This document shows, piece by piece, positions 1-53,422 of a stretch of 56,910 bases of DNA. Positions within the stretch are counted from its first letter, which is position 1. The number at the start of each line of letters is the position of its first letter. The notes under the pieces are model-generated. The model did no database searches and was not told the DNA's origin. It was given only the letters and a program-made list of their open reading frames with translations. Source of the DNA: a virus; IMG/VR virus record IMGVR_UViG_3300027898_000003, positions 1 through 56,910 of that record. One strand, 5' to 3'. Made by a program: the position numbers and the translations under genes.

Positions 1-90
1 CCGACATACTTGGAAACATCAAAGTAACCGCCCTTTCCATCTTGCAGATAGACCTGTCCCGCACCATTCCGCACCACTTGCGCCACAGGC
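1..90. repeat. Terminal redundancy: bases 1-90 are identical to 56821-56910 (circular-assembly overlap or short direct terminal repeat)
   Basis: Direct comparison of the first and last 90 nt (ccgacatacttggaaacatc...cgccacaggc) shows identity. Confidence 0.95.
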
Positions 91-2237: not shown

Positions 2238-2386
2238 CGCGTCCATCTCCATAATTCCCACAATGCACCCAATTCAACGAGGCTGGCCCCAGCCTGCTCA
2301 ACCACCGGTGCATCGGGTGGCAGTTGACGTTGTAAAGTCCCGCAGCCGCTAAGCGTTATGACCAGTGCTGCAATTACGTATTTCAT
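2234..2386 (-). CDS. small lipoprotein (50 aa), not in ORF track
   Basis: GGAGG 4 nt upstream of ATG 2386. Hand translation MKYVIAALVITLSGCGTLQRQLPPDAPVVEQAGASLVELGALWELWRWTR has a signal peptide and LSGC lipobox. ATGA overlaps on both sides. Confidence 0.6.
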   Translation of the reverse strand: MKYVIAALVITLSGCGTLQRQLPPDAPVVEQAGASLVELGALWELWRWTR

Positions 2387-3111
2387 GTAACCTCCACAAA
2401 AGATTTATCCCAGCTGCGAACGTCGCCAAGTGGATACACCTGATTGACAACCCACGCAACACCTTTGCCTTTGATGCATTCGACCAAATCCGTTGGGTCG
2501 ATCAACTCTCCAGCTTCGTACGATCGCTTGACAAACAGCGAATCAAACCATGTCGATGCTCGTGTCTCCATCATTGCCATCGCAATAAAAGGTTTCAACC
2601 ACTTCTTGAACGCAATACGGGCTTTCTTGCGCGCGTCCGAAGTAGTGGGCTCTTTCTCGTTGGGCGCGTCGACACTACTAGCAACGTCGAGCATACCGTT
2701 TTTGTACGTTAAGCGTATAGGGAAATCCCCAGTTGCATGTTTGTTAAAACCGACTATGACTTCGCGACCAGTCGTTGCAAACTGCTTGCTGTATGCCCCT
2801 ACGCCCAGCACACGGTACATAAAATATGTGCTGGTTTGTCGTTCATCGACGTTGTACTGCACTTCGCGGCGCTCGCAGCCATTGATCAATTCTGGCTTGT
2901 AGAATCGCGCCATAGACGTGCTGTACAAGACCACATCGTAGTAACCATCGTGCTTTTCAACACGAAAATGGGGTTTGCTAATGCCGTCCAATGGACGCTG
3001 GTTTTCTTTCCACTTTTTACTTCGCGTCTTGAGTGGTGTCTTGAACAAATAATCTGCTGCTTCGTAGTTTTGAATGCGTTCGCAATTACGAACGTTTGCG
3101 CCCCATGCCAT
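2383..3111 (-). CDS. hypothetical protein (242 aa)
   Basis: Track ORF 2383..3126. ATG 3111 (MAWGAN) is preceded by AAGGAA. Confidence 0.65.
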   Translation of the reverse strand: MAWGANVRNCERIQNYEAADYLFKTPLKTRSKKWKENQRPLDGISKPHFRVEKHDGYYDVVLYSTSMARFYKPELINGCERREVQYNVDERQTSTYFMYRVLGVGAYSKQFATTGREVIVGFNKHATGDFPIRLTYKNGMLDVASSVDAPNEKEPTTSDARKKARIAFKKWLKPFIAMAMMETRASTWFDSLFVKRSYEAGELIDPTDLVECIKGKGVAWVVNQVYPLGDVRSWDKSFVEVT

Positions 3112-3269
3112 AGCTATTCCTTTCAAGTGTTAAGGGTGGTGGGTTGGGCCTTACTCGCCCACCGCGAGCTATTTGAATCTGAACCGGCTGTTCATCGTCA
3201 TCGGGGGGCCGATTCAGAAACCGAAGGTCATAGAGGACCCCATCGCTTCGGCCAGTATGCACACCCCCG

Positions 3270-4469
3270 TTATTCTTCCATCTCGAAGTGTATCGTGATA
3301 CCCCACGGCGCCACAATGTCAGAGCTGATTAACCAGATGACAGGATAACCCGGGTCTTCGCCGAACGGCGTGTAGCCATCGGTCAGGCAGATAAATACAT
3401 CGGGCTCGATGCCATGCTCCTGTACCCAGTCAAAGCCTACCGGCATGTTTGTGCCGCCGCCGCGCATGAATTCCAATACAACCGGTTCTTCAGCCTCAAA
3501 TTCGACGTGCTTCTGGACATGCGTGTCGGTGTAGATGACGTGCACTTTCTCAGGCGCGCACTGCTCGAAGATGCGGGCAACGTGGCCGTTGTAGTACGCC
3601 ATCTCACGCTCGGATACGGAACCAGACACATCGACTTGCTCGACAATGGTACCCATGGTTTGTTTGCGACCAGTGCTGGGGAAGTACGTTACCCGGCTGT
3701 CGTACCGGCGGTTAGGCCGAGCCCATGTGCTGTTACTCTGAATGAAGCCAGTCATGTAACGCTCAAGGATGTCATACCACGGCGTCTTGACTGCGAGCAA
3801 GCTTGTGACCAACTGTTCCAGAATACCAGTGAGCTTGCCTGCCATCTTGGCGGCTTGCGCTGCTTGGGCAACCTCACGGAAAATACGTGCCTGCGCATCA
3901 GAAGCTTCCTGCTCGGTGCATGGGTCGGAGTCGTCTATGTCGTTGCCGATACCACCGCCTTCATCCGTTGACTCGGGCAGCTCGTTGTACACACGGTCGG
4001 TCGTCTTCTGATGCGAGCCGGGCATGTCAACCGTGTTGGGGATAGGCACACCGATCTTGCACTGGGCCAAGAAGTCGTTGATGACTGCATCGCCGGCATA
4101 GTTCCAGCGCGCATGGTTGCGGCTACCGCGACGGTACAGGTGGTCGAACATCTCATGGCCTACCTCATGGCACAGCGCCCACATAAGCTGGTCAACGGTC
4201 CACTGTGAACACCACTTGGGGTTGAGTTTGATCTGGCTGCGCCGGTTGATCGACAGCGTGGGTATGTCGTACGAAAAGATAAGCTCGCGGCGCAACACCA
4301 TGACTGCCCAGAAACAGTGATGCAGGACAAGTTGAGTCTTGGCTTTGGAGAGCTTGAACTCAAACGCTTTAAGGCCTGCTGGTGACAGATGCTCCGTAGA
4401 ACTTGTTGATGAGCGCTGGGCTCCAGAGTGTTGAGCTGCTGCCGAACTTGTTGAGGTTGCTTGGGTCAT
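3270..4469 (-). CDS. metallopeptidase-VWA fusion protein (DUF2201-like architecture), partner of MoxR-type ATPase
   Basis: HEVGHEMFDH (HExxH) lies in the N-terminal half. The C-terminal VWA has MIDAS residues DVSGSV ... GGGT ... TDG. The 5' end is uncertain because of a 101-nt overlap with 4369..4686. Confidence 0.8.
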   Translation of the reverse strand: MTQATSTSSAAAQHSGAQRSSTSSTEHLSPAGLKAFEFKLSKAKTQLVLHHCFWAVMVLRRELIFSYDIPTLSINRRSQIKLNPKWCSQWTVDQLMWALCHEVGHEMFDHLYRRGSRNHARWNYAGDAVINDFLAQCKIGVPIPNTVDMPGSHQKTTDRVYNELPESTDEGGGIGNDIDDSDPCTEQEASDAQARIFREVAQAAQAAKMAGKLTGILEQLVTSLLAVKTPWYDILERYMTGFIQSNSTWARPNRRYDSRVTYFPSTGRKQTMGTIVEQVDVSGSVSEREMAYYNGHVARIFEQCAPEKVHVIYTDTHVQKHVEFEAEEPVVLEFMRGGGTNMPVGFDWVQEHGIEPDVFICLTDGYTPFGEDPGYPVIWLISSDIVAPWGITIHFEMEE

Positions 4470-4686
4470 ACCATCCTTTGGGTTGAGTTAAATAAGTTTT
4501 GCCGTTTTCGAGGGCGTAAATATTCGCTTGAATAATTTGTTTCCAGTTGTGGCTAAACGGTGGAATGTGGTCTTTGTGTCCTCCTTCAAGAAGAAAGGTA
4601 ACCATCAACGCTTTGTATTCCTTGCGTCGTTGGCGACGAGTTAAATTGCGATTAGAACGCTTCTTTTTTTCTTTGTTCGTGGTCAT
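4369..4686 (-). CDS. hypothetical basic protein (105 aa)
   Basis: ORF with ATGA overlap to the upstream gene. Lys/Arg-rich N-terminus. Confidence 0.55.
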   Translation of the reverse strand: MTTNKEKKKRSNRNLTRRQRRKEYKALMVTFLLEGGHKDHIPPFSHNWKQIIQANIYALENGKTYLTQPKGWYDPSNLNKFGSSSTLWSPALINKFYGASVTSRP

Positions 4687-4898
4687 TCGTCAAGCTTCTG
4701 ATTGGCAATCATGACCGACACATAGTCCTTGTTCAGAATCGTACCGGTAATCGTGGGTTGGTGTTTGTGCAGTTCATAAATATAACCCGGGCCAGACTCG
4801 TAACGATTGGTAACGTCCACCAGTTCACCAAGCAAATCACTGCAGCGCAACGGGACCATAAACGTGCCTTGGATAACAATGTGTGCTTCGTTTTTCAT
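4683..4898 (-). CDS. hypothetical protein (71 aa)
   Basis: ORF in an ATGA-coupled chain. Confidence 0.55.
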   Translation of the reverse strand: MKNEAHIVIQGTFMVPLRCSDLLGELVDVTNRYESGPGYIYELHKHQPTITGTILNKDYVSVMIANQKLDE

Positions 4899-5125
4899 TC
4901 AAGTAACCTCGATATGTAATGAGCAATGCATTGCTCGATTGCGTCTTCCTGCTTACAAACAGGACCCTGAAAGTCTGACCACGCCGGAAATTTTCTTGCA
5001 CGCACGCAAGAACGGTATGACCAACCGTGAGAATGCTTTTGAACGACACCCACAATAAGATGGTTTGCATCATACAAATACTGACTGTTGTACATAACTT
5101 CATAGTCGCTGGCTTGGATACTCAT
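4895..5125 (-). CDS. hypothetical protein (76 aa)
   Basis: ORF in an ATGA-coupled chain. Confidence 0.55.
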   Translation of the reverse strand: MSIQASDYEVMYNSQYLYDANHLIVGVVQKHSHGWSYRSCVRARKFPAWSDFQGPVCKQEDAIEQCIAHYISRLLE

Positions 5126-5415
5126 GAGTGCTCCATTATGAACATAGCCATCCGAGCACGCTCAGCCTTGATGTCGTGTATCCATGTGCCTGAATAACAA
5201 TTAAAAGAACCAGAAAGTGATTTTGGTGCAAGAACACTAAGGTGGTTGTGCAACGTCATGTCATCGTCAGTGGTTAGCACAGAATAAGCGTGCTTGTTAC
5301 TACAACACACGCATTGCCGGCACCGGTGCAATGTTTGATCGGCGGTCAAACCGTTGCTAAATATGGGCGCTTCAACATAACGATAGCGCTTGCGTTTAAA
5401 GGTGGTGGTAATCAT
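5122..5415 (-). CDS. hypothetical Cys-rich protein (97 aa)
   Basis: Internal ATG (MITTTFKRKRY) of track ORF 5122..5535 gives an ATGA overlap with 5412..5645. Contains CRQCVCC. Confidence 0.5.
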   Translation of the reverse strand: MITTTFKRKRYRYVEAPIFSNGLTADQTLHRCRQCVCCSNKHAYSVLTTDDDMTLHNHLSVLAPKSLSGSFNCYSGTWIHDIKAERARMAMFIMEHS

Positions 5416-5645
5416 GCATCCTCCAGTTTGGTTGTGACCAACGAGTAAATCAACATGGTCGTTGCTTCTTGCTGGGTAGCGCATGGCCTGCTGACAAGGT
5501 ACGGTTGATCGCTGGTAAAGTCGTTCCAGTACCAAGCTTTCTGGTCTTGCTTACCAGTCACCATGTCTTCGTACACACGCCCTAGTTGACGCCCATCGTC
5601 GTGATACAAGAACATGTAGCAGGGGAGAACGTCATCCCATCTCAC
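5412..5645 (-). CDS. hypothetical protein (77 aa)
   Basis: ORF in an ATGA-coupled chain. Confidence 0.5.
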   Translation of the reverse strand: MRWDDVLPCYMFLYHDDGRQLGRVYEDMVTGKQDQKAWYWNDFTSDQPYLVSRPCATQQEATTMLIYSLVTTKLEDA

Positions 5646-6532
5646 GCGAAGTAAGCAGCCAGCTTGTCGGCGGCAGCTTCCAAGTTAGCCTTGGCTGTGG
5701 AACGCGCAGTTTCGTCGGTCTTGATTGTCTCGATGCCGAACGTGTAACCTTGCACCAAGCGCTCGATGTCGGCAATTTCTGCCAACAACTGAGGCGTTGC
5801 GTCGATAGCCAGCTTGCGCGCCAGCTTGCAGCCTTCCAGCACGTTTTCCAGTACGCTCGCATGGAAGCGTTCGCCCTTCTCGCCTTTGTAGGTACCTAGC
5901 CGGTTGGTCAGATACTCCAGTGGTTTGAGCATGCGTTCGATCGTTGCGTTGTTGGTGTCAGCCAGCATCTCGGCAAACTGCGAACGCACTGCCTGCTTGT
6001 CTTCCTCGTCCATGTCAAACAGCGGGTGCGACTCGTCGGGCAAGGGAATCATACGGAAATCAAAGCTGATGCGTGCAGCAAACTCGGATGCTGTTGGGTA
6101 GTCGCTCAGCGTTGCATGGCCGTTGGCTTTGCCGTAGTTGCGGTACGCGATGTCGTCGAGCACCAGCTGGTCATATATGGGCAATACGTTCTGCTTATGG
6201 CTGTCCACCACAGCGATCAAGTGCCGCAGCCCTTGGGTGTACTCGAAGATGTTGTCGCCGCGCACCAGCCGCTTATCGCCGCAACGCTCGGTGTTGTCGC
6301 AGTGATAGGCATAGACCTCGGATACAGCCCGCATAAGCTTCCACACAGGCGTGCTTTCCTTGCGAAACAGTTTGGTAAATGCCGTGGCTGATGCATCGGA
6401 CTGACGCAGCTGAGCCGTTGCCGTGTTGTCGCGTTTGACCAGTGTTGTTCGTCGAATAACCAGCTTGGCTTCGATGGCTTTCTCGGAAAGCTTTGCGACT
6501 TTGGGAACCATGGGGGTTTGAATGAGGTGCAT
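5642..6532 (-). CDS. conserved hypothetical protein, possibly DUF3150-like
   Basis: 296-aa ORF with AAGGA before ATG 6532. It lies between the AAA+ and VWA genes. The family name is from recollection only. Confidence 0.6.
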   Translation of the reverse strand: MHLIQTPMVPKVAKLSEKAIEAKLVIRRTTLVKRDNTATAQLRQSDASATAFTKLFRKESTPVWKLMRAVSEVYAYHCDNTERCGDKRLVRGDNIFEYTQGLRHLIAVVDSHKQNVLPIYDQLVLDDIAYRNYGKANGHATLSDYPTASEFAARISFDFRMIPLPDESHPLFDMDEEDKQAVRSQFAEMLADTNNATIERMLKPLEYLTNRLGTYKGEKGERFHASVLENVLEGCKLARKLAIDATPQLLAEIADIERLVQGYTFGIETIKTDETARSTAKANLEAAADKLAAYFA

Positions 6533-6542
6533 ACAATTTTCC

Positions 6543-6794
6543 TTAAGCGAGTTCTAACAATGCCATTGCGTGCTGGATGCGCGCTTCGGGTGTGTTGAGG
6601 ATGTACACGGTGTGAACGCAATAATAAAAATCGTCTTCGGGTGACAATCTACTAAGTGTTTTACATCCTTGGTTGTTGTACGAATTAAGTGCGCATCCTG
6701 TGCACGCATTCATTTCGTCGGGGTGAACTGGCCAGCGCACAAGCTGGTACTCTATACCTTCGTATGTGGTTGTATCTCCTATGTTAAGTTTCAC
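6543..6794 (-). CDS. Cys-rich miniprotein, paralog family member
   Basis: GTG start with GGAGG upstream and a GTGA overlap. CTGC...C...C, then an ...ALLELA tail. Confidence 0.6.
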   Translation of the reverse strand: MKLNIGDTTTYEGIEYQLVRWPVHPDEMNACTGCALNSYNNQGCKTLSRLSPEDDFYYCVHTVYILNTPEARIQHAMALLELA

Positions 6795-7027
6795 GCTGCC
6801 TCCAGTTTGAGTGCGATGTAGTCTCCCATTGCTTCTTTGTTATCTGGAACGTAAATAATGCTGCGACAATGACCATATTCTGTGTACACAACACGACAAC
6901 CCGGGCTTCTAATAATAAAATCTCTGTTGTCGAACGCGCAGCCTGTGCAGCTTTCAAACCCAGTTGTGCCGGGTTTTACTTCCGGCACTGTGCGGTAGTC
7001 AACGCCCCTATACAAGAACGTCGGCAT
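6791..7027 (-). CDS. Cys-rich miniprotein, paralog family member
   Basis: Internal ATG (MPTFLYRG) of track ORF 6791..7210. CTGC...C...C, then an ...LKLEAA tail. Confidence 0.55.
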   Translation of the reverse strand: MPTFLYRGVDYRTVPEVKPGTTGFESCTGCAFDNRDFIIRSPGCRVVYTEYGHCRSIIYVPDNKEAMGDYIALKLEAA

Positions 7028-8024
7028 TTGCTGCTGCCCAGTTGTAATACGCCTTGGTCTTCTTGATGGCCGGGTCTTTCTTGATGGCATCCTTGATGCA
7101 AGTAACCCGCAGCTCAGGCTCGAAGCGGTCGGTGTACGCGCACACGGCATCGAAGTTAGCCGCAGTCGACGCCCGGGCAACTGCACCCATGACAGCGTAC
7201 TTGATGTCAAGTCGCGACGGCAGTGCGATGGTCGTGGGGTTCTTGAGGATGTCAGGGATGTGCGGCAAGTCGTTCATGATCTGCTTGAACCCGATGTACT
7301 CAGCGGCACGGCCAGAACCCACAGAACCCGCGGCATTCTCTTGCTGCAGGCTGAGTGGCAGGGACTCTGGGATACGCGCTACATCTTCCCATGTGCGCGG
7401 CGTGGCGTTGGCATAACGCGATGCGTCGAAGTCGACCAGTGCTGCACCTTGCATGAAGCGGTGGTACTGCACAAGCGCAATGGGGAAGTTCATGGCGTTT
7501 GCATAGTCACACCATTCTTCAAGGTTCTCGGTGTAATCCAGACGACGCGTACGGCCAGCAAATTTGGTCGGCACACGCATGGCACCAGACTTGTCCTCGG
7601 GGCGATTGCCAGTAGCAATGATGTAGAGCTGGTCGGTCAACTCCCACTCGCCGGCAAAGCGGTCATAGATGATGCGGCATGCTGCGTTGAACATCTCGAC
7701 CCGGGCATCGCTGAATTCTTCGAGCAACAAGGCACACTTGCCAACGCCCTTGCGCATTTTGTAGAACATCTCGGGCGGTACCCAGCGAGTGAACTCGCCG
7801 TTGGTGTTGGGCATGCCCAGCAAATCCACAGGGTCACGAGAGCTCAGGTTGAGCTCGAACATATTGACTTGGGGTATGAAACCAAGCTCGCAGAATGAAT
7901 CACGAGCGCATGCCGACTTGCCTCCGCCGGGTGGGCCCATGATGGCGAACACGGTCTTGTTGGCGTCGGCGCGCTCCTGAGAGAACTGAGCGACGATAGA
8001 GTGCTTGATGTCAGAGTATTTCAT
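7008..8024 (-). CDS. MoxR/CobS-type AAA+ ATPase
   Basis: Walker A GPPGGGKS, Walker B LLLEEF. 338 aa. AGGA precedes the ATG. Confidence 0.85.
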   Translation of the reverse strand: MKYSDIKHSIVAQFSQERADANKTVFAIMGPPGGGKSACARDSFCELGFIPQVNMFELNLSSRDPVDLLGMPNTNGEFTRWVPPEMFYKMRKGVGKCALLLEEFSDARVEMFNAACRIIYDRFAGEWELTDQLYIIATGNRPEDKSGAMRVPTKFAGRTRRLDYTENLEEWCDYANAMNFPIALVQYHRFMQGAALVDFDASRYANATPRTWEDVARIPESLPLSLQQENAAGSVGSGRAAEYIGFKQIMNDLPHIPDILKNPTTIALPSRLDIKYAVMGAVARASTAANFDAVCAYTDRFEPELRVTCIKDAIKKDPAIKKTKAYYNWAAANADVLV

Positions 8025-8072
8025 AGTTGTCCTAGAGTTGATGTGCTGCTGTTACGGCCAGCAGCGAAGCCG

Positions 8073-8447
8073 TTATTTTTCTAACGCGTTCATGGCAAGC
8101 TGAACATTTAAATCCATGATGCCACCGTGAGCATCGAGGTATTCCACTATTGACATAAGTGGGACGTAAGCGTAGGGTTGTCTGTATTCTTCGTCACGCT
8201 TACCAAGACAATCGTGGTGCGGGCAATGCCACATTTCCATGCTGCGCGGAACTAGCTCATTGCCGTGGCAATAAAATGCGCGACTGTATTGCAGTGATGC
8301 AGTTGCACCATCGTTCATTCGTATGGGTACACGCACTGTTGCGTAGCTAGGCTTGTCTTTTTCCGGGTAAGGGATCTGACGCCGTTCATCTAAGTCAAAA
8401 CGTTTGTCACTCAACCACGCCAGTAGCGTGCGCAATGTCTCGGTCAT
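8073..8447 (-). CDS. hypothetical protein (124 aa)
   Basis: ORF. His/Cys cluster WHCPHHDC. Confidence 0.55.
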   Translation of the reverse strand: MTETLRTLLAWLSDKRFDLDERRQIPYPEKDKPSYATVRVPIRMNDGATASLQYSRAFYCHGNELVPRSMEMWHCPHHDCLGKRDEEYRQPYAYVPLMSIVEYLDAHGGIMDLNVQLAMNALEK

Positions 8448-8670
8448 AGGGTATTCCTTCTAGTGCGGTAGTAATTGCTGCCATTTTTTCGGCCCATACG
8501 AAATTAGGCAATTCACTATTTTGGTTGAACTTGCAATCCCATTCGCCTTCTGTACATTGTGGGTTAAACAAACCTGACATATCGTTAAAGCGTACGCATT
8601 GCGTGCATGTGGGTTTGACGAGACGGCTGACGGGAATAAGCACGTACTCTTTACTGTTAATTGAGGGCAT
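8407..8670 (-). CDS. Cys-rich miniprotein, paralog family member
   Basis: GGAGAAATCAAATG start context. CTQC...C...C pattern. Confidence 0.55.
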   Translation of the reverse strand: MPSINSKEYVLIPVSRLVKPTCTQCVRFNDMSGLFNPQCTEGEWDCKFNQNSELPNFVWAEKMAAITTALEGIPYDRDIAHATGVVE

Positions 8671-8905
8671 TTGATTTCTCCAGTACTATCGTTACAGCGT
8701 CGACGACAGGCACCCATATGGTTGAACTTGGGCACGTTATGCATTCCTGTGAATTTATTGCTTTTTCATTGTTTATTGTTTTTTCGTACGCAGGGCAACG
8801 CAAGCACACCGGGCCTTCTTCGTTGAGTAAACCTTCTTCGTTGAGTAAATTAACGATTGGTATAGCTGCGCATTCAACGCCGCGTATGATGGCGCGGAGT
8901 GTCAT
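8657..8905 (-). CDS. Cys-rich miniprotein, paralog family member
   Basis: ATGA overlap upstream. CLRC...CITC pattern. Contains a tandem LLNEEG LLNEEG. Confidence 0.55.
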   Translation of the reverse strand: MTLRAIIRGVECAAIPIVNLLNEEGLLNEEGPVCLRCPAYEKTINNEKAINSQECITCPSSTIWVPVVDAVTIVLEKSNALN

Positions 8906-9099
8906 GGCGTCAATTGAAAGTCGTCGTCTGGGTGCGTGACTTGGATGGTAAAACCCAATGCGTGGATTTTGACCAGTGCTGCAGGCGTGAGCGTCTTGGT
9001 TCCAATGAGGTCTGCGAAATGGTGCGCCGTGTCACACACTGGGTAGTACACGTTGGTGCCGTAATTCTGTTTCTTGAGAACGATGATAGTCGTGATCAT
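8902..9099 (-). CDS. hypothetical protein (65 aa)
   Basis: ORF in an ATGA-coupled chain. Confidence 0.5.
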   Translation of the reverse strand: MITTIIVLKKQNYGTNVYYPVCDTAHHFADLIGTKTLTPAALVKIHALGFTIQVTHPDDDFQLTP

Positions 9100-9338
9100 G
9101 ATGTCTCCACTTTGAGTTGGGCCGCACGCACGAGCGTGACGTAGTGGCCGTCGGTGCAGTTGTTAAATACGCAGTGTTCTTCAGCGCCACCGTTATTGCG
9201 AAAGAAGCACTTTTTGCAGCCTAACCCGTTATGATGCTCTGGGTCGGTGTCATACGTAACAAACACAGCTTCGTTAGGGTGTGTATCGCTGCGTTGCCAT
9301 TGCTTTGCTGGTTTGCCGGTAGGTCTTGCTAAGCTCAT
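9096..9338 (-). CDS. Cys-rich miniprotein, paralog family member
   Basis: CKKC...C...C, then an AAQLKVETS tail. ATGA overlaps. Confidence 0.6.
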   Translation of the reverse strand: MSLARPTGKPAKQWQRSDTHPNEAVFVTYDTDPEHHNGLGCKKCFFRNNGGAEEHCVFNNCTDGHYVTLVRAAQLKVETS

Positions 9339-9574
9339 GCGTTTTCCAGTTTGTGCATTGCTGCTTCAATTAAAGTCATCCACACACCGTTACCGCACGC
9401 ATGATTCCTGCACATGATTTGTTGCTTATCGCTGTTGCCCCTGAACAGGCATTTGTCACAGCTATCTTCGCTGTCTTTCATGGGGACAAACACAGCGTCC
9501 GGTACTAATGTGCTTCGAGCAGATGGTTTAATGCATCCATTGCTATCGATGTCTTCATTTGCAACGCCGTTCAT
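9335..9574 (-). CDS. Cys-rich miniprotein, paralog family member
   Basis: CDKC...C...C, then an AAMHKLENA tail. Start set at ATG 9574 (ATGA overlap); alternatives are at 9583 and 9592. Confidence 0.55.
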   Translation of the reverse strand: MNGVANEDIDSNGCIKPSARSTLVPDAVFVPMKDSEDSCDKCLFRGNSDKQQIMCRNHACGNGVWMTLIEAAMHKLENA

Positions 9575-9711
9575 GGTCGCCATACGATGCAATCGAGCAA
9601 GATGATACCGGCCGCTGCTGCATACACAATGACCCAGTACAGGACCGTGCGCAGACCGTCGTTACGTTGCTTTATTTTGAGTGTAGGCAGTTTGGTGGGT
9701 TTCATGCGCAT
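9571..9711 (-). CDS. small membrane protein (46 aa)
   Basis: AGGAGC precedes ATG 9711. MRMKPTKLPTLKIKQRNDGLRTVLYWVIVYAAAAGIILLDCIVWRP has one TM segment. Confidence 0.55.
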   Translation of the reverse strand: MRMKPTKLPTLKIKQRNDGLRTVLYWVIVYAAAAGIILLDCIVWRP

Positions 9712-9803
9712 GCTCCTGAGTAGCAGATGTAGGGCTCCAACGGACTTGGCTCTGGCGTGTGCGTGGCGAACGCTGCCACTGCAATGATGATGGCGTAGAT
9801 CAT
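9702..9803 (-). CDS. tiny hydrophobic peptide (33 aa), not in ORF track
   Basis: Hand translation MIYAIIIAVAAFATHTPEPSPLEPYICYSGACA. ATGA overlaps at both ends. Confidence 0.35.
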   Translation of the reverse strand: MIYAIIIAVAAFATHTPEPSPLEPYICYSGACA

Positions 9804-10066
9804 AAATACTCCTTGTTGTTCCACGGCTCTGTAATACCCCAGCGTGGGTCTGGGAACTTGTCGCACAAGGTTGCTTTGACTTCCATGTGGCTTTTGTGCA
9901 TGGCGATGTAGCGGGCACGCGTGGTGGCGATCTGCTCGTCCGTTGAGTCCGGGTGTCGCATCAGCTTGAGAACATTATGTTCGAGTTGTTTTATGTTGGC
10001 TGCCATGCTTTTGTACAGTCTGCGCGCACGCTGACGCGGCGATTCAGTGGGTGCGGCGTCGCTCAT
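9800..10066 (-). CDS. hypothetical protein (88 aa)
   Basis: ORF with helical, charged composition. Confidence 0.6.
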   Translation of the reverse strand: MSDAAPTESPRQRARRLYKSMAANIKQLEHNVLKLMRHPDSTDEQIATTRARYIAMHKSHMEVKATLCDKFPDPRWGITEPWNNKEYL

Positions 10067-10202
10067 TTTGCGTCGGCTGCGTTTGACCAGTGTTGCATGC
10101 TGCCACTATTGCCAGAAAACGTGCAACTGGCAAACGTTCAAACTGTTGGGTCATGGCCCGCAAGCAATGATCAAGAAATGCAATTTCGATACGTGGGTCC
10201 AT
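10041..10202 (-). CDS. possible small ORF (53 aa), not in ORF track
   Basis: GGAG lies 6 nt upstream of ATG 10202, 3 nt after the stop of 10206..10634. MDPRIEIAFLDHCLRAMTQQFERLPVARFLAIVAACNTGQTQPTQNERRRTH. It overlaps the next gene by 26 nt. Confidence 0.3.
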
Positions 10203-10205
10203 ACG

Positions 10206-10634
10206 TTACTCCTTTAGTTGATACTTGCCGTCCACCAGAACGGCGCCATTGGCCAGTGCGAACTCACGGGCCCGTCGGGTTGTCTGCCCGTCTTCCTCAT
10301 GGTTGAGGAATGGGATTAGATACTTGACTGCTTCACTCAGTGGCGCAATCGGCGAACGGCTGCGCTTGGCGAAACCTTCCACTTTCTTTACTGAGTGAAC
10401 TGGCTTTGGCCAATGCGGTGCAATGTCTGGGTACTTCTTCAGTATCAACGACCGCACAATTCCACTTAGTGGCTGGCGATGCACCAGCGCTAGCTCGCGC
10501 ACCTTGGCTTCCGTCACGTTGACGGACTTTAAAAACTCTTTGGTCAACGATTCCACTGAGTGTGGTGGATGTGTTGGGACGTGTTCGCGCAGTGCCAGTT
10601 GCGCGGCTGTTGGGCATGAAATGGTCAAGGCCAT
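10206..10634 (-). CDS. hypothetical protein (142 aa) whose coding sequence carries four CACTNAGTG-type palindromes
   Basis: ORF. Palindromes at 10334, 10389, 10463 and 10554. Confidence 0.65.
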   Translation of the reverse strand: MALTISCPTAAQLALREHVPTHPPHSVESLTKEFLKSVNVTEAKVRELALVHRQPLSGIVRSLILKKYPDIAPHWPKPVHSVKKVEGFAKRSRSPIAPLSEAVKYLIPFLNHEEDGQTTRRAREFALANGAVLVDGKYQLKE

Positions 10635-10973
10635 AGGTTTGTTCTCGCAAGTTGAATCAAATGAAAACCTTTATTATATGGGGTTTGCGGGGGTATTGAG
10701 CAACGAGACGTCAATCCGTCGAAGCCGCCGTAATTCTTGGGGTCATGTGGCATATGTCCACTTAGTAAGATTTAGTGGGTTACGTTACTCAGTAGAGACA
10801 CGCCACATGACCCCATGTCAAAGCCCTCGCGTGGAAAATGAATATTTACTCTTACTTATTATATAGTTTACTCAATATGGCAAAAATCCGCATAAACACG
10901 TGGTTTTATTGAGTTACTTTTAGAGATGGTTGAAAAAAGCCACCTAGTGACTAAGTGGCTACCTTGAGTTTAC
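10635..10973. promoter_or_regulatory. 339-bp non-coding region with palindromes, TTTACTC repeats, an AT-rich stretch and a perfect TATAAT on the minus strand (10673-10678)
   Basis: No plausible ORF. Repeats read directly from the sequence. TATAAT lies about 40 nt upstream of ATG 10634. Confidence 0.6.
10738..10815. repeat. 14-bp perfect inverted repeat (TGGGGTCATGTGGC / GCCACATGACCCCA) with a 50-nt spacer
   Basis: Arms are at 10738-10751 and 10802-10815. The spacer contains CCACTTAGTAAGATTTAGTGG. Confidence 0.85.
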
Positions 10974-11189
10974 TCAGTGACTTACTAAGTGAGCTGTGCC
11001 GGCAACTGTAAACTTGGATATGTTGCGCGTAGCTACAATGACGCGCTCGCCGCGTGTCGACCCGGTAACCTTGGGATTGCCGCATCCATGCACACGAGCA
11101 TGGGCGTAAGTATCGACAGCTGTGAAGCTGCCTGCATTCACTAAGTGAACACGTTTAGGTGGTAACTTTGTACCGCGATTGATGTGCAT
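10974..11189 (-). CDS. hypothetical protein (71 aa)
   Basis: Track ORF 10974..11201. ATG 11189 has GGAG 7 nt upstream; a GTG at 11201 is the alternative. Confidence 0.55.
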   Translation of the reverse strand: MHINRGTKLPPKRVHLVNAGSFTAVDTYAHARVHGCGNPKVTGSTRGERVIVATRNISKFTVAGTAHLVSH

Positions 11190-11237
11190 GTAATGCTCCA
11201 CGTTTTGCGTCAGTCTGGGTTGACCAGTGCTGCGCGC

Positions 11238-11268
11238 AAAAAAAAAGAACGGGCCTCGCGGCCCGCCC
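11238..11268 (-). terminator. rho-independent terminator after gene 11272..11805
   Basis: Minus strand reads CGGGCC-GCGA-GGCCCG, followed by TTC and a run of nine T. Confidence 0.8.
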
Positions 11269-11271
11269 TCC

Positions 11272-11805
11272 TTACTCCTTGGCTTCCACCAAGTCGTACT
11301 TCTCGCTCAGGATTTCACGAGCATGGAACTCCGCAGCTGCTTTGACCATGTGGTCCAGCAAAGCTTTGCCATGCACGGGAATTCCCTCGCTGTTAGCGTC
11401 GTTCGCCTGCTTTGTCAGAGTATCCAAGAATTTGTCAAACTTCGCGGCAATCTCCAGCACGCTAACCGCTGGAGCTTCGGGCTTTGCTTCCTCCCATGGC
11501 TTCGCCATGAGACGTTCGCGCAGCTCAGGTGTATCAGCCTTGCCGAGCTTATGCATCTTGTCGTAGCTAAAGGTTTGCTTACCCTTAGCAATGAACATGC
11601 ATCCATTGAGCTCAAACCATGCACGCAGCGAAGCCTTGCGGCCTTGCTTGCCGATAGCGTCAACCAGCTGATCAGCAAGCGTTACATCACCATGCAACAC
11701 GGCATGGATGACGCATTCAACCGCACACGCTTGCACGTCACGGGTGATTTTGGCCGCTTGTTTGCCGATCGAACCGATGGCCTTGAGAATTTCAGTTTTT
11801 TGCAT
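11272..11805 (-). CDS. first leftward (early) gene, hypothetical protein (177 aa)
   Basis: ORF. No family recognised. Confidence 0.7.
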   Translation of the reverse strand: MQKTEILKAIGSIGKQAAKITRDVQACAVECVIHAVLHGDVTLADQLVDAIGKQGRKASLRAWFELNGCMFIAKGKQTFSYDKMHKLGKADTPELRERLMAKPWEEAKPEAPAVSVLEIAAKFDKFLDTLTKQANDANSEGIPVHGKALLDHMVKAAAEFHAREILSEKYDLVEAKE

Positions 11806-12370
11806 ATAACACTTTCAAAAATAAGGGAGATAAGAGGACCGGCTATTCGCGCCGCCGGGTAATGGCGCGTTGCATCTAAGGACGTGCAACTATCCGCCGA
11901 CCTGTCACGTCGGGCCTTTACACGGATAAGGTTTTGCCGTGCACTTCAGGGGATAGGACCGCGCCATTCAATCGCGCCGGATATACCCTTTGATTCCTAG
12001 AGCCGCCGCGGTGTAGGCACACTATGGGCGTGCCTATCCCCACATGCGGATAGCGTAGCGGCGCAGCAATCCTCGCGCCCTTTCGGGCCGGCGCACCTCG
12101 CAGAGAGTAATCTCGATCTGCTTAAGGCTGTCAAAACCGGACAACGGGGGGGCAGATGGCCAAGAGTTCCTTGAGCTTTAGCTCACCCCTTCAACACATA
12201 ACGTTCCCAAAAATAATAACCCTACAATTTAGTCAACTATTCCGAAGCCGTAATTTCGGCATCGACCTATTTTTCCAAGGTACCCCCCATCAAAACCGCC
12301 GCCAAAAAAATTTTCAGAAAATTCCGCACTCCAGTACACTCAGTGAACTTCGTAAGCAGAAAGGCTTAAC
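11806..12370. promoter_or_regulatory. divergent control region between the leftward and rightward gene blocks; GC-rich, densely self-complementary
   Basis: 565 bp without a convincing ORF. Contains multiple hairpins and GGATAG/CTATCC repeats. Confidence 0.75.
12106..12134 (-). promoter_or_regulatory. candidate sigma70-type leftward promoter
   Basis: Minus strand TTGACA (12134-12129), a 17-nt spacer, then ATTACT (12111-12106). Perfect -35, weak -10. Confidence 0.35.
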
Positions 12371-22649: not shown

Positions 22650-23446
22650 TGCAAAAATTCACAGACATCGTTTTGGCTGCCAGCGGCGGCGGCACTGCGT
22701 CTCCACTTGGCAACGCCACTGTTACGGTAACGCAAGCGATCGGTGGCGCAACCGCCGCGATTTATTCAGACAACGGCGTCACCCCACTGGCCAACCCATT
22801 CACAGCAGACAACACTGGTCGCGTGTCGTTTTACGCTGCCGACGGACGATACACCATCACTGTGGCCAAGACCGGGTTTACCACGGTAACCATCGCCGAC
22901 ATCATCCTTGAAGATTCTCAGGACACTCTGACGTTCACGGACACCGGCACGCTTGGCGCATGGCAAAGCACGACCAACAGCTACAACCAGCTGATGATTC
23001 AAAACAAGAGCAACGGCAGCACAGCCAGCGCTAGTTACGTGTTTAACAACGATGTAGCAACTACTTCGACCAACTACGGTGAGGTGGGCATCAACAGCTC
23101 TGGGTACAGCGGCACAGGGCCTTTTAACCAGCCCGGGTATTGCTACGTAGCGTCGGCCACAACGCCCCTTGCGATCGGCACTTACAGCAACCAGCCGATT
23201 TACTTTGTCGTCAACAGCGGGGCTACGGCGGCAGCAACAATCGACACTAGCAACAGGCTGCTTGTTCCAAACGGTACCGTAGTCGCTCCTGTTGCGTTTG
23301 CTTCTTTGCCAGCGTCCCCCATTGCGGGGCAACGCGCAATGATCAACAACAGCGTTGCTGCACCTGCGTTTTTGTCAACCGCAGCGGGGGGTGGTTCTAC
23401 AACCGTGCCAGTGTTTTACAACGGCACCGCATGGCTGGTGGGCTAA
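22649..23446 (+). CDS. tail-fibre/tail-associated structural protein
   Basis: The N-terminal segment VTVTQAIGGATAAIYSDNGVTPLANPFTADNTGRVSFYAADGRYTITV looks like a beta-sandwich. The C-terminus is GGGSTTVPVFYNGTAWLVG. Confidence 0.5.
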   Translation: MQKFTDIVLAASGGGTASPLGNATVTVTQAIGGATAAIYSDNGVTPLANPFTADNTGRVSFYAADGRYTITVAKTGFTTVTIADIILEDSQDTLTFTDTGTLGAWQSTTNSYNQLMIQNKSNGSTASASYVFNNDVATTSTNYGEVGINSSGYSGTGPFNQPGYCYVASATTPLAIGTYSNQPIYFVVNSGATAAATIDTSNRLLVPNGTVVAPVAFASLPASPIAGQRAMINNSVAAPAFLSTAAGGGSTTVPVFYNGTAWLVG

Positions 23447-43010: not shown

Positions 43011-43014
43011 AAAA

Positions 43015-43037
43015 GACCCCGGTTTGTAGCCGGGGTC
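43015..43037. terminator. hairpin terminator at the convergence of the two gene blocks
   Basis: GACCCCGG-TTTGTAG-CCGGGGTC. On the minus strand it is followed by TTTTTT; on the plus strand it has an A-run before it and no T-run after. Confidence 0.8.
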
Positions 43038-51474: not shown

Positions 51475-53422
51475 AAGTGTCTCCAATTCCAGATTCACTC
51501 CAAGTCACCAAGTCGGGCCACCATACAGGCGGTGTGCGCATGGCATCGTCAAGCTTTTCACGGATTTCTTCTGCCCGAGCTTTCTCAATTACCAGCACAT
51601 ACTCGTCGTGTACCAGTAACGCAGGCTTGACATCGTACTGCTTGTACATGCGCCGCACAACAGACCTCAAGCAATCAGCAGCCAACGCTTGCACGATGTT
51701 CTCGTCGACCTTTCCAGCATAAATTCGGGCCCGGTTGCGGCCTTCGCCGTAAATCCATTCTTTTTTGCCATCTGTACCAACCTCACGATGCAGCCCGGGG
51801 TACCAAATTTTGCGGCCGCTGGGAAGCTGAATGTGATCTTTGCCTGTGGTACATAGCCCCCATGGGTCAATCGCGCTCTCACGCCCGTTTGCAATGTCTG
51901 TCAGGGCATCGTGGCAGGTACGCCAGCCTGCAGCAATCTCGCTGTATTCTTCGCGCCACGTTTCCACAACGGTCTTGGCTTCTTCCAGCTCCATATCCAC
52001 ACCGCCCATCATCTTAGCAATGCGTTGAAACGTGCCGGGCCCGGCGCCAAAACCCAACCCAAGGTGAGCGATCTTGCCGATCTGACGCTGCTGCTTAGTA
52101 ACGTCAGCCTTGTTGGGAACCGTGTACAAATTAGCGGCAAACTCACGATACAGGTCTGCTTTAGCTGGGTCAGCCTGAAACAAATTTATACTGGAGCGCA
52201 CTTGCCATAGAAAATGGTTGACGCGCAATTCAATCCCCGACAAGTCTGAAGTCACTACTTTGTATCCGTCTGGCGCGCGCAAGCTGTTGCGTAGTGCATC
52301 AGACATCTTGGGTTTGGTCGGGTCAATGCGTGGCAAATTCTGTGGGTTAAAAATTTCACCACTCCAGCGACCAGTGGTGGTTGCTCCGCAATAACGCAAC
52401 GGCATCGGCAGATAACCTTTGAGCCTGCCAGACGCTTGCAAAAATGCATTAATGCGGGTTTCCAGTAATGTGCTTTTGGCTTCTAACCGGGCCCGGGCAG
52501 CGCAGGCCACTACGGGGTCGTCATGCTCTTGCAAATCCAAAAACGTTTGGTCGGTTTTCGAGAGCGCCGGTATCATCTTGCTAGGGTCTGACGGCGACTG
52601 TTTCATGGGAACGTCCACGCTGCGATTAACAAGTATCTCACTGAACTTGGCAGCAGACATCAACTGCGTGCGTGTAAATTCTTCTAGCTTGCCACCTTCA
52701 AAAACGATGGTTGCTACCTCGTCTGGGTCCAGCAGCATTTGAGCGAGCTCTTTCAGTGAGCGCAACTTTTCTTCCTGCACTTTGACCAACGTGGTTTGCA
52801 GCAAACCCTTGTCAACAACAAACTGTGGCTCTGTCAGCATGCGCGTTGTCAAATCGATCTGCAGCAATTCCGCTGCCGGTGTTTCGCGGGCCAAAATTTT
52901 GAACAGACCGCAACACTGCTCTGTGTCCGTCTTGTTGTATATGCCCATCAAGCGGATTTCTTCGGGCGTAAAGTGCTTGAGATTTTTACCCTTGGTGTTG
53001 AGCAACGCCGAGTTGTCTTTGACTCCGCTGATGCCCATGGCTTGAAGTTGCGGTGCAAAGTGCGCAACCAGTTTACCAAGCGAGCCGCCAACGCTTGCGT
53101 TGTATTTGGAACGTGCCATAGCCAACGTGCATCCCCACATGGCCGGGTTGACACCAAAACGCCACGACAAAATCAACGCATCAAACCCTGACATATTGTG
53201 GCCGATCGCCATGGACTTCGACCAGTCAACCGTCTTGAGTATTCGACGAATTTCTGCGTCGCCAAAATACACCATCGTGGCTGCGTTGTGACCTACCTTC
53301 ATCGACAACGAAATAATTTCCGTGTCTGGATGCATGACGTACTCGATGTTGGTCATCTTGGAAAGTGTGTGCGTGGCCGACCAAAACGACTCAAAATCAA
53401 GGTAAACGGGAGTAAGTTTCAT
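51458..53422 (-). CDS. family A DNA polymerase with 3'-5' exonuclease domain
   Basis: Exo I YLDFESF. Motif A DLSGIELRV. Motif B RQIGKIAHLGLGFG. Motif C LLVHDEYV. Confidence 0.92.
   Translation of the reverse strand: MKLTPVYLDFESFWSATHTLSKMTNIEYVMHPDTEIISLSMKVGHNAATMVYFGDAEIRRILKTVDWSKSMAIGHNMSGFDALILSWRFGVNPAMWGCTLAMARSKYNASVGGSLGKLVAHFAPQLQAMGISGVKDNSALLNTKGKNLKHFTPEEIRLMGIYNKTDTEQCCGLFKILARETPAAELLQIDLTTRMLTEPQFVVDKGLLQTTLVKVQEEKLRSLKELAQMLLDPDEVATIVFEGGKLEEFTRTQLMSAAKFSEILVNRSVDVPMKQSPSDPSKMIPALSKTDQTFLDLQEHDDPVVACAARARLEAKSTLLETRINAFLQASGRLKGYLPMPLRYCGATTTGRWSGEIFNPQNLPRIDPTKPKMSDALRNSLRAPDGYKVVTSDLSGIELRVNHFLWQVRSSINLFQADPAKADLYREFAANLYTVPNKADVTKQQRQIGKIAHLGLGFGAGPGTFQRIAKMMGGVDMELEEAKTVVETWREEYSEIAAGWRTCHDALTDIANGRESAIDPWGLCTTGKDHIQLPSGRKIWYPGLHREVGTDGKKEWIYGEGRNRARIYAGKVDENIVQALAADCLRSVVRRMYKQYDVKPALLVHDEYVLVIEKARAEEIREKLDDAMRTPPVWWPDLVTWSESGIGDTYGEAH

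Follow-up and report, generated by a model that had tools for sequence, protein, structure and literature searches.

A clade-specific DNA word repeated on one strand of a phage early arm may be a recognition site resembling localized-nick consensus sites

Why should a phage genome repeat one short word along a single strand of its early arm? In a viral stretch of 56,910 nt (IMG/VR record IMGVR_UViG_3300027898_000003; the window), exact matches to CA[GA]CACTGGTC occur nine times, eight on the minus strand and one on the plus strand, and seven of the eight minus-strand copies lie within 2.3–11.3 kb (Table 1). In the window's clade the motif extends to CA[GA]CACTGGTC[A/G]. The original prediction had listed these nine matches, and every one was recovered at its position and strand, as were the 17-mer common to 6431–6447 and 10079–10095, the 14-mer common to the copies at 8971 and 11222, and the two reading frames, A-A-L-V/T-T-L-V and S/N-T-G-x. 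Measured from the divergent junction, the motif positions are 1.4, 3.4, 5.3, 8, 9.8, 14.6, 17, (29) and 42% of genome length.

Table 1. Coordinates of the motif copies and of neighbouring features in the window.
Feature	Position	Strand	Context
Motif copy 1 (CAGCACTGGTC)	11222..11232	-	Intergenic, ~0.8 kb from divergent junction; immediately past terminator of first early gene; 10 nt on, then GACGCAAAA
Motif copy 2 (CAACACTGGTC)	10085..10095	-	Within 52-aa gene, frame N-T-G-Q; 10 nt on, GACGCAAA, then ATG of next gene
Motif copy 3	8971..8981	-	Within 65-aa gene, P-A-A-L-V-K
Motif copy 4	7434..7444	-	Middle of MoxR-like ATPase gene, G-A-A-L-V-D
Motif copy 5	6437..6447	-	85 nt into 296-aa gene, R-R-T-T-L-V-K-R-D
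Motif copy 6	3668..3678	-	DUF2201 (metallopeptidase/VWA-like) gene, P-S-T-G-R; orthologous position in relatives
Motif copy 7	2360..2370	-	16 nt into 50-aa lipoprotein gene (signal peptide MKYVIAALVITLSGC)
Motif copy 8	45096..45106	-	Primase-helicase gene, ~24 kb from junction along same strand; similar copy in relative L297 at 14117
Near-exact tenth copy (CACCACTGGTC)	52369..52379	-	PolA gene; 8-nt core intact; conserved in relatives L218 (14078) and L297 (21993)
Plus-strand motif copy	22810..22820	+	Sense strand of structural-arm gene (265 aa), D-N-T-G-R
Intrinsic terminator	11238..11268	-	G+C-rich hairpin and T9, read from sequence; ends first early gene, just ahead of motif copy 1
First early gene, phrog_1448	11272..11805	-	177 aa, function unknown; sole early-arm gene upstream of first motif copy
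Non-coding junction	11806..12155		Separates divergently transcribed early and structural arms; no unusual structure as RNA (z = -0.16)
Primase-helicase	43078..46047	-	989 aa: AEP Prim-Pol domain, PriCT-2-type helical domain, SF3/DUF927 helicase; candidate motif reader

The repeated one-strand word is real and far above chance. Dinucleotide-preserving shuffles of the window gave a mean of 0.05 copies and a maximum of 1, against 8 observed on the minus strand, in line with the over-representation first claimed. Significance also survived gene-by-gene shuffling of synonymous codons that left the proteins unchanged: in 2000 shuffles the minus-strand mean was 1.2, which includes one unshuffled intergenic copy, and the maximum was 4. 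Taken by itself and given its protein sequence, the copy on the plus strand at 22810 lacks significance (P(≥1) = 0.175), so within the window alone the proposal that the word is always on the sense strand is not separable from its being always on one DNA strand; for the clade the proposal is supported by relatives that carry full-consensus sense-strand copies in the structural arm.

Selection maintains the word throughout a family of phages, most of them uncultured, in several versions that differ by clade but have the common core CACT. In relatives it is again a sense-strand word of this early arm: the window's clade has CACTGGTC, most of the family AGCACTCA, one subclade (L172/L179/L180) ACCACTCA and Rhizobium phage RHph_TM3_14A GCGCACTCA. 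Relatives with 63–92% ATPase identity have 3–8 copies of CACTGGTC per locus and none on the other strand. Across 37 dereplicated distant loci (445 kb), the sense strand has 82 copies of AGCACTCA and the opposite strand one, against 14 ± 3 under the codon-aware null; AGCACTCA and CAGCACTC (74:0) are the two most strand-skewed 8-mers there. The isolate RHph_TM3_14A has nine copies of GCGCACTCA on one strand and none on the other, at 2.4, 5, 8.2, 10.6, 14.1, 20.5, 27.7, 49 and 68% of genome length from the junction. Both the conservation and the strand skew that the original prediction had proposed to look for in relatives were found.

Within the family, conservation is highest at the copy in the 296-aa gene (6437..6447). 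Its orthologous codon block reads TTLV, AALT or APLT, matching the local motif version: TTLV accompanies CACTGGTC in 7 of 7 sequences, AALT, spelled GCA-GCA-CTC-AC, accompanies AGCACTCA in 19 of 23, and APLT accompanies ACCACTCA in 4 of 6. Because the codon block follows the local version of the word, selection acts on the nucleotides and not on the protein; the word is not a protein motif, as had been argued from its two frames. The copy in the MoxR-like ATPase gene keeps an orthologous position in relatives at 68–92% identity, and is lost in some relatives although the AALV peptide is retained.

The information in the site is limited to 10–12 contiguous positions forming a single G+C-balanced block, with no partner element, -10-like or other, at a fixed distance and no hairpin at the motif sites; the motif is not a two-box promoter. 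Along the early and replication arm the copies all point the same way; sites recur about every 1–2.5 kb in the early arm and thin out with distance from the divergent junction. The gaps between them (median 1.6 kb, 4% under 600 nt) are more even than random (combined P = 2e-4). Gene boundaries are not clearly preferred by the 177 unique copies, and many copies lie deep within long genes (those of the ATPase, DUF2201 and the primase). The ends of metagenome contigs show no significant excess at the sites (5 of 92 within 30 nt versus 2.9% expected), which counts against a nick.

RHph_TM3_14A carries two full-consensus copies antisense within structural genes, where the codon-aware expectation is 0.05 (P(≥2) = 0.001), which argues for a role at the level of DNA rather than of sense RNA. 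A target in early mRNA, bound by a protein or a small RNA or acted on by an endoribonuclease, close to the RNA processing or recognition site among the roles first suggested, would suit the sense orientation in the window and its clade, the short, unstructured form of the motif and the position of some copies beside ribosome-binding sites. Nevertheless, the antisense copies, the lack of any positional relation to genes and the absence of an Rfam family match make it highly improbable, and kilobase spacing with falling density from the junction has no obvious rationale for RNA.

A phage-specific transcription signal, read on the non-template strand and repeated along the long early operon, is possible but doubtful. 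Host RNA polymerase, modified by an early phage protein, could use it as a one-block promoter, as at T4 late promoters; alternatively, an elongation or antitermination factor could reload there, as RfaH does at ops. All window copies are co-oriented with transcription, and the window's relatives in the clade have full-consensus sense-strand copies in both arms: like the window at 22810, three other lineages (L312, L313 and L310/L297) each have one structural-arm copy, at different places, on the opposite DNA strand but sense there. The first copy always lies between the first early gene's terminator and the next genes; in the window it is intergenic and just after a terminator, as originally described, and its arrangement (T-run, gcgCAGCACTGGTCAACC, N, GACGCAA) is repeated in relatives L123, L126, L129 and L219. 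A second element, N10-GACGCAAA, stands near a start codon at two window copies and at the first copy in relatives. For the copies at 10085 and 11222, GACGCAAA(A) and a start codon had been predicted to follow after 8–9 nt; the element is present, the gap is 10 nt at both, and the start codon at 11222 comes another 17 nt downstream. In the ACCACTCA subclade, three of five copies precede a Shine-Dalgarno sequence and ATG by ~8 nt. The density of T7 class II promoters resembles the motif's ~1 per 1–1.5 kb. Set against these points are the single block without a partner, the lack of a clear preference for gene boundaries, with copies deep in long genes, the antisense copies of RHph_TM3_14A, and replication genes beyond ~10 kb that are nearly free of copies. 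Pfam, PHROGs, NCBIfam and motif scans found no RNA polymerase, sigma or NusG-like protein among the gene products, many early proteins being without detectable relatives.

A Chi-like signal, also among the original candidates, would protect the DNA that enters first or is first exposed, by attenuating a RecBCD/AddAB-type nuclease of the host that comes in from a DNA end at the junction. The copies have one orientation and are densest near the putative end; read on the complementary strand (GACCAGTG, TGAGTGCT, TGAGTGGTG), the word would be met from its 3′ side by an enzyme coming in there, and it appears G/T-rich, as known Chi sites are. Known Chi words rank with the most over-represented words of their hosts, whereas 50 kb of host DNA from one replicon, the R. 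etli chromid p42f, contains GCGCACTCA once, and the CACTCA core is under-represented there (4 versus 12 expected per strand). Moreover, the word is kept in phages of 42–63% GC; the AGCACTCA version by itself spans phages of 43–63% GC, presumably with different hosts. The motif block has 9–12 nt versus 5–8 nt for known Chi sites. The rarity in R. etli DNA and the wide GC range disfavour this role; a host Chi is unlikely, and we give the Chi-like explanation little credence.

The phage itself encodes a candidate reader. The N-terminus of its primase-helicase has the AEP motifs DxD, SGxGxHxYW and hD, the predicted fold (pLDDT 86) best matches cyanophage S-2L PrimPol and the RSF1010 RepB′ primase, homologues carry PriCT-2, and the C-terminus is like SaPI Rep helicases. 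The AEP motifs, the RepB′ and S-2L matches and PriCT-2 together suggest a primase of the sequence-specific class. RepB′ primes only at specific ssiA/ssiB sites, and pRN1 ORF904 needs GTG. The characterised Prim-Pol of NrS-1 uses the template words GTGA/GTGG and TTTGGTTA (PMC8718748). The AEP-PriCT-2-SF3 enzyme might thus recognise the word on one strand and start DNA synthesis there, the sites marking out a zone, downstream of an origin at the junction, in which initiation takes place at defined points. The complement of the family-invariant CACT is AGTG in every version, and the single orientation, roughly Okazaki-fragment spacing, thinning from the junction and clade-dependent word would all fit. 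However, a GTG core is too short for strong evidence, known primase words have 3–4 nt or are structured 40-nt ssi sites, and no hairpin occurs at the motif sites. We know of no phage that uses dispersed 9–12-nt priming words. Lagging-strand priming is needed genome-wide, yet one quarter of the genome contains nearly all of the sites, and no comparable motif was found in Pseudomonas phage Rollin, whose primase is homologous (31% identity). Site-specific priming is, with the transcription signal, one of the two main rival accounts of the motif, and like it possible but doubtful.

Tentatively, we favour a strand-specific site that is recognised by a DNA enzyme of the phage itself and has its closest likeness in the nick consensus of tf/LUZ24, phiKMV-like phages and T5. 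This precedent was absent from the original candidates. These had included a binding site for a phage regulator, which is compatible with the data in its general class, although we see in it a DNA site recognised by an enzyme and not a classical operator. Overall, the original interpretation is partly supported. The localized nicks of Pseudomonas phages tf and LUZ24 have the consensus TACT/RTGMC. In tf the sites share a 9-nt asymmetric consensus and number 14, with 8–9 in its relatives; all are on one strand, 11 of 14 lie in the early half, positions are conserved between relatives, and the consensus differs between tf and LUZ24 (PMC3517423). Like the present family, tf-type phages have two gene arms converging mid-genome (PMC3517423). 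The LUZ24 nicks lie at 4.2, 7.3, 11.7, 14.1, 24.5, 29.1, 45.5 and 65.4% of genome length. In phiKMV-like phages, Andromeda and LKA1 among them, homologues of the first early gene lie 1–2.5 kb from the left end, and the junction of the present family may correspond to physical DNA ends.

The likeness to localized nicks has its limits. The motif sequence is unlike every published nick consensus, and the promoter-like place of the first site counts against a nick. Whereas tf-type sites are all on one strand, the window's clade has rare structural-arm copies on the opposite DNA strand, in sense orientation, and these fit a transcription-linked or bidirectional process better than tf-type nicks. 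No nickase has been identified in the present phage, and likewise none for tf. Priming and nicking also overlap, as unsealed junctions at priming sites could themselves be 'nicks'. On the recognition-site reading, a compact word would be read on DNA, on one strand only, by an enzyme that probably comes from the phage itself, and the outcome at the sites may be a nick. The motif would then be the family's own version of the localized-nick consensus, its sites most likely marking positions where one strand of the mature phage DNA is cut or left unsealed.

The original prediction is confirmed and extended: the oriented 11-mer CA[GA]CACTGGTC represents a strand-specific DNA word under strong selection across a whole phage family, with versions that differ between clades. 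Nine exact copies occur in the window, eight of them on the minus strand and the ninth, at 22810, on the plus strand; dinucleotide-preserving shuffles produce 0.05 on average and never more than one. Tolerating one mismatch adds three more sites, among them a near-exact copy in the PolA gene. The codon-aware test proposed along with the prediction gave the same answer: when synonymous codons were permuted inside each gene, leaving the proteins unchanged, 2000 shuffles yielded on average 1.2 minus-strand copies (a mean that includes one intergenic, unshuffled copy) and at most 4, versus the eight seen. The lone plus-strand copy is consistent with chance given its own protein (P = 0.175, codon-aware). 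The word is read in two frames, AALV/TTLV and S/N-T-G-x, some copies have a 17-mer or a 14-mer in common, and the copy at 11222 is intergenic, behind a hairpin-plus-T9 terminator, all as originally described. The copies are alike over 11–17 nt only, which excludes a longer repeat or a mobile mini-element. An exact 14-mer scan of IMG/VR gave unrelated single matches; literature searches for the motif strings returned unrelated matches and no description of these words, and searches for Rhizobium phage names returned no results.

An exact 90-bp direct repeat at its termini marks the window as the circular assembly of a phage genome of ~56.8 kb (53% G+C). The contig break sits within a gene whose product has internal repeats, and L121 and L122, independent assemblies of the same phage, terminate within ~20 bp of the same place. 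Two gene arms diverge at ~12 kb from a non-coding junction and converge at ~43 kb. The minus-strand arm starts at ~11.9 kb, runs leftward past coordinate 1, and reaches 43.1 kb. Its products are ~28 small early proteins, a MoxR-like ATPase, a DUF2201 (VWA/metallopeptidase-like) protein, PolA, a PD-(D/E)XK exonuclease, a VRR-NUC nuclease, an SNF2 helicase, and a 989-aa primase-helicase. The plus-strand arm (12.1–43.0 kb) encodes a terminase, an SU10-type portal, capsid, and internal virion proteins. The junction region is not unusually structured, and megablast against isolated phages found no close DNA relative of the window. The window shares an HNH_3-type endonuclease gene with the near-identical contigs L121 and L122; none was called in the fetched stretch of a 92%-identity relative (L123/L124), and the gene is probably a mobile homing endonuclease. 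Cysteine-rich early proteins of 79–97 aa with CxxC...C...C spacing match no family and look like paralogous zinc-ribbon proteins. Protein P0193 of Limnohabitans sp. MORI2 (2.6-Mb contig) is 39% identical to the N-terminal domain of the primase, and the giant virion protein also matches a Limnohabitans phage; these homologues hint at a freshwater betaproteobacterial host.

Coordinates of features in the window and in related phage loci
Feature	Sequence	Coordinates	Strand	Remark
Terminal direct repeat, 90 bp	window	1-90 and 56821-56910		exact
HNH_3-type endonuclease gene	window	691-1185	minus	
Cysteine-rich small early proteins	window	9574-8407, 6794-6543, 5415-5122	minus	
GACGCAAA(A)	window	11203-11211 and 10067-10074	minus	
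ACTNAGT cluster	window	10335-11146	both	
A+T-rich gap with TTGACA/TATAAT-like boxes	window	10640-10960		
First early gene, 177 aa	window	11272-11805	minus	phrog_1448
Divergent junction	window	11806-12155		non-coding
Structural-arm copy	window	22810	plus	
Virion protein, 2469 aa	window	35601-43010	plus	
Primase-helicase gene	window	43078-46047	minus	989 aa
Primase-helicase gene	RHph_TM3_14A	42239-45322		
Primase N-terminal domain	window	44788-46047		
Near-exact copy CACCACTGGTC	window	52369-52379	minus	PolA gene; one-mismatch search
Structural-arm copy	L312	13697		
Structural-arm copy	L313	16695		
Structural-arm copy	L310	7434		same site as L297 1155
Antisense full-consensus copies	RHph_TM3_14A	47854 and 59233		within minus-strand structural genes
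Tandem 12-nt array	L176	8341-8581		

The ATPase of the window has hundreds of metagenomic homologues, and ~170 ATPase-centred loci were fetched for comparison. In clade A, the clade of the window (ATPase identity 63–92%), the core CACTGGTC occurs 3–8 times per locus; in early-arm loci it is on the early-gene strand every time, with zero copies on the other strand. Sites in the ATPase, 296-aa, and DUF2201 genes and the first site behind the terminator occupy orthologous positions. The remaining sites are lineage-specific; thus, sites turn over while their density is retained. In distant relatives (~50% identity, G+C 42–63%) the word is AGCACTCA, mostly CAGCACTCA, and one subclade uses CACCACTCA. 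Across 37 dereplicated loci (445 kb), the sense strand holds 82 copies of AGCACTCA and the opposite strand one; no 8-mers there are more strand-skewed than this word and CAGCACTC (74:0). Codon-aware shuffling predicts 14 ± 3 sense-strand and 2.7 opposite-strand copies of AGCACTCA, so that avoidance of the opposite strand is unsupported once coding constraints are counted. RHph_TM3_14A, an isolated Rhizobium phage of the same family, has the same gene order as the window and carries GCGCACTCA nine times on a single strand. The more distant Pseudomonas phage isolates KPP25 and Rollin contain no comparable motif, and Sinorhizobium phage PBC5 is an unrelated temperate phage. In L176 and L178 (63% G+C relative), tandem 12-nt units (GGGGCGCAGCCT and variants) lie within an early-arm gene and bear no relation to the word.

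The clearest evidence for selection on nucleotides is a block near the start of the orthologous 296-aa gene. It reads RR-TTLV-KRD with CACTGGTC in 7/7 sequences, RR-AALT-KRD with AGCACTCA in 19 of 23, and RR-APLT-KRD with ACCACTCA in four of six. This version switching at orthologous codons, together with the codon-aware shuffles, excludes a protein motif or chance.

A sequence logo built from unique contexts (264 for GCACTCA, 58 for CACTGGTC) carries information in 10–12 contiguous positions only, as the blocks (G)CAGCACTCA(Y) and CAGCACTGGTCA(A). These contexts contain no second element at any fixed distance, and the sites have no conserved flanking complementarity or ssi-type hairpin. Positions of the copies relative to gene ends are near random; 21% lie >300 nt past the nearest gene end versus 11.5% expected, and the first site is the only consistently intergenic one. 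Gaps between sites are more even than random (median 1.6 kb, 4% <600 nt); the combined P of 2e-4 is not an exact probability because the lineages are related. Density drops with distance from the divergent junction. Sites in the window are located 0.8, 1.9, 3.0, 4.6, 5.6, 8.3, and 9.6 kb from it, followed by the PolA near-copy at ~16 kb and a site in the primase gene at 24 kb; seven of the nine exact copies fall inside the 9 kb adjoining the junction. The corresponding distances in RHph_TM3_14A are 1.5, 3.0, 5.0, 6.4, 8.6, 12.5, 16.9, 29.9, and 41.2 kb. Replication arms of AGCACTCA-type phages hold 16 sense copies and one antisense copy in 260 kb, a weak excess over the ~4 expected per strand.

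Two other elements occur in the same early region. GACGCAAA(A) lies near start codons exactly 10 nt after the copies at 11222 and 10085, a spacer that corrects the 8–9 nt reported originally; relatives L123, L125, L126, and L129 retain it behind their first motif copy, and it may be a separate expression signal for the genes after these two copies. The palindrome ACTNAGT, often CACTNAGTG, is present in 18 copies versus 7 expected genome-wide, and 10 of the 18 are clustered in 800 bp that cover the second early gene, an A+T-rich gap with promoter-like boxes, and the start of a 142-aa gene. The arrangement resembles an array of operators or iterons; in distant relatives this place is occupied by different palindromes, TGTGTATACACA and TTGGATAATT.

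Whether the word follows the DNA strand or transcription is the most important question for the mechanism, and the lineages disagree. In RHph_TM3_14A it follows the DNA strand: two of the nine copies, both with the full consensus, are antisense to structural genes, where the codon-aware expectation is 0.05 (P(>=2) = 0.001). In the window, 8/9 copies are on one strand (9/10 counting the PolA copy). Clade A genomes have one copy each in the structural arm, on the sense strand of that arm and hence on the opposite DNA strand. All structural-arm copies listed in the table have the extended consensus CA-N-CACTGGTC-A/G, whereas the two antisense-strand core matches found in clade A lack it. Counts in the distal structural arm of AGCACTCA-type phages are at chance level (1 and 3 on the two strands in 155 kb), so the comparison between a strand rule and a transcription rule is confined to clade A and RHph_TM3_14A. 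The robust observation is that the early and replication arm carries its sites on the sense strand; the rare extras may be on either strand, depending on the lineage.

The sense orientation in both clade A arms would fit a one-block transcription signal, as would the constant position of the first site behind the terminator of the first gene, the N10-GACGCAAA extension at two sites of the window, and, in one subclade, the location of copies near ribosome-binding sites. The word resembles phage promoters and the ops element read by RfaH in being transcription-oriented in the window, at a density near that of T7 class II promoters, and, like the T4 late promoter TATAAATA or ops, it is a single short block. 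However, the block is G+C-balanced, the copies are mostly intragenic with no preference for intergenic stretches, gene ends, or places ahead of a gene, and RHph_TM3_14A has antisense copies. No partner box was found, which eliminates a two-box sigma-70 promoter. Searches for a cognate RNA polymerase, sigma factor, or activator detected none, most early proteins having no detectable relatives, and no open reading frame contains T7-like or double-psi-barrel polymerase motifs. The 2469-aa virion protein was considered as a hidden RNA polymerase and rejected: it matches only a lysozyme-like segment (aa 1296–1451, resembling the lysozyme domain of phiKMV gp37-type internal virion proteins) and, over its C-terminal ~600 aa, the DarB-like/SNF2 giants of Pseudomonas, Erwinia, Rhizobium, and Limnohabitans phages, with no matches to the N-terminal ~1290 aa. 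We consider a transcription signal unlikely.

A Chi-like signal, one of the roles suggested originally, is quite improbable. Chi (RecBCD/AddAB), KOPS/FtsK, and SRS/SpoIIIE are also short words in which orientation counts, and a role in protection or in guiding a translocating enzyme could be imagined here too. Yet Chi, KOPS, and SRS are host-encoded and host-abundant, whereas this word tracks phage clades, clusters in one genome quarter, and is rare in the host replicon examined. In 50 kb of the R. etli chromid p42f, the one replicon searched and with one version of the word, GCGCACTCA occurs once and not at all on the two strands, and CACTCA four times and not at all, versus 12 expected per strand; the over-representation expected of a host Chi is not seen. 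The same version of the word also spans phages of very different G+C, which argues against Chi. An RNA-level target has even less to recommend it and is the least probable reading; Rfam and tRNA searches found no known RNA or tRNA in the window.

The closest parallels are the localized single-strand nicks of other phages. Site-specific nicks have been known in T5 since the 1960s and were found later in phiKMV-like phages and in tf. In tf, 14 mapped nicks lie within 5'-TACT/RTGMC-3' on the top strand only, 11 of them in the left, early half; the two arms of the tf genome are transcribed convergently (PMC3517423). The 8–9 sites of LUZ24, PaP3, and phiMR299-2 are similarly placed, and their main word differs slightly, which the tf authors read as nickase–site co-evolution; the function of the localized nicks of tf, phiKMV-like phages, and T5 is still unknown according to the same work (PMC3517423). 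The LUZ24 sites, at 4.2, 7.3, 11.7, 14.1, 24.5, 29.1, 45.5, and 65.4% of the genome (PMC3517423), closely parallel those of RHph_TM3_14A at 2.4, 5, 8.2, 10.6, 14.1, 20.5, 27.7, 49, and 68%, as well as those of the window when measured from the junction. The likeness extends to a repeated short asymmetric consensus of 9 nt, far above chance and within the ~4–14 copies per genome typical of nick sites (8–14 per 45–60 kb podovirus-type genome), to two gene arms converging mid-genome, and to location on the early-arm sense strand, densest near the early end and then sparser, with the same fall-off in the window, RHph_TM3_14A, and tf/LUZ24. Positions are partly conserved, and the consensus varies between relatives.

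There are differences as well. The word is known here from sequence, whereas the tf nicks were mapped physically; the tf-type sites are all on one strand, unlike the rare structural-arm copies of clade A; and the phage families are unrelated, with no close DNA or protein similarity detected. The phiKMV-like nick consensus, 5'-CGACNNNNNCCTA/CTCCGG-3', and that of the major T5 nicks, 5'-R/GCGCRGG-3', are likewise strand-specific with few repeats per genome but are longer or different and have 4–5 major sites only; phiKMV nick sites are on the non-coding strand (PMC3517423). CA[GA]CACTGGTC and AGCACTCA match none of the published consensuses (TACTRTGMC, CGACN5CCTACTCCGG, RGCGCRGG), having only the trinucleotide ACT in common. 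The first early gene belongs to a family found in many phiKMV-like Autographiviridae 1–2.5 kb from the left genome end, including the nicked phage Andromeda; this is a conserved immediate-early function and a weak link to nicked phages. Ends of metagenome contigs, used as a proxy for nicks, fall near sites in 5/92 cases versus 2.9% expected, which is not significant.

Because of the resemblance to the tf/LUZ24, phiKMV-like, and T5 nick sites, we tentatively rank first a reading in which a phage DNA enzyme would recognise the word and leave a strand interruption. Nicked phages already offer examples of a one-strand consensus concentrated in the early half of podovirus-type genomes; the opposite-strand structural-arm copies of clade A depart from the tf pattern.

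The strand-interruption reading overlaps with another, in which the sites prime synthesis by the AEP-PriCT-2-SF3 primase-helicase of the phage, because site-specific priming could leave fixed discontinuities. The primase N-terminus is an AEP Prim-Pol with conserved DxD, SGxGxHxYW, and hD motifs, and its AlphaFold model (pLDDT 86) has S-2L PrimPol and the RSF1010 RepB' primase as best Foldseek matches. Homologues contain the helical PriCT-2 domain, and the helicase part is like SaPI Rep; the phage thus has its own AEP primase, complete with a helical domain for template binding. RepB' primes site-specifically, at ssiA/ssiB, but these sites are ~40-nt hairpins, one per strand, at a single origin. 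The pRN1 Prim-Pol requires GTG, and the family-invariant CACT reads AGTG on the complementary strand. To our knowledge, dispersed 9–12-nt priming words are without precedent; the sites are limited to one genome quarter, and phage Rollin has a homologous primase yet no such motif. Template words of the NrS-1 Prim-Pol contain GTG (GTGA/GTGG) and also include TTTGGTTA (PMC8718748). Such AEP Prim-Pol words differ in being 3–4 nt long and not over-represented as long words. Priming sites are about as doubtful as a transcription signal, and the sites would be an unusual one-block type for either. Less likely again is a broader scheme, a phage-encoded polar DNA code with clade-specific versions, in which the primase-helicase or another phage translocase loaded at the genome end would read scattered words for single-strand initiation, and synthesis from defined points would leave site-specific discontinuities.

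The comparative evidence indicates that one-strand words of a nick-like kind are strongly selected in a large, mostly uncultured freshwater phage family and in cultured Rhizobium phages: codons are rewritten for the word, the word differs by clade, and its density declines from one genomic point. Cultured RHph_TM3_14A makes the question directly testable, and candidate readers can be sought by pairing the versions of the word with the proteins of the phages that use them. If the polar code exists, replication would be the source of the localized nicks in T5-, phiKMV-, and LUZ24-type phages, and codon-level co-evolution would offer a way of matching reader to word.
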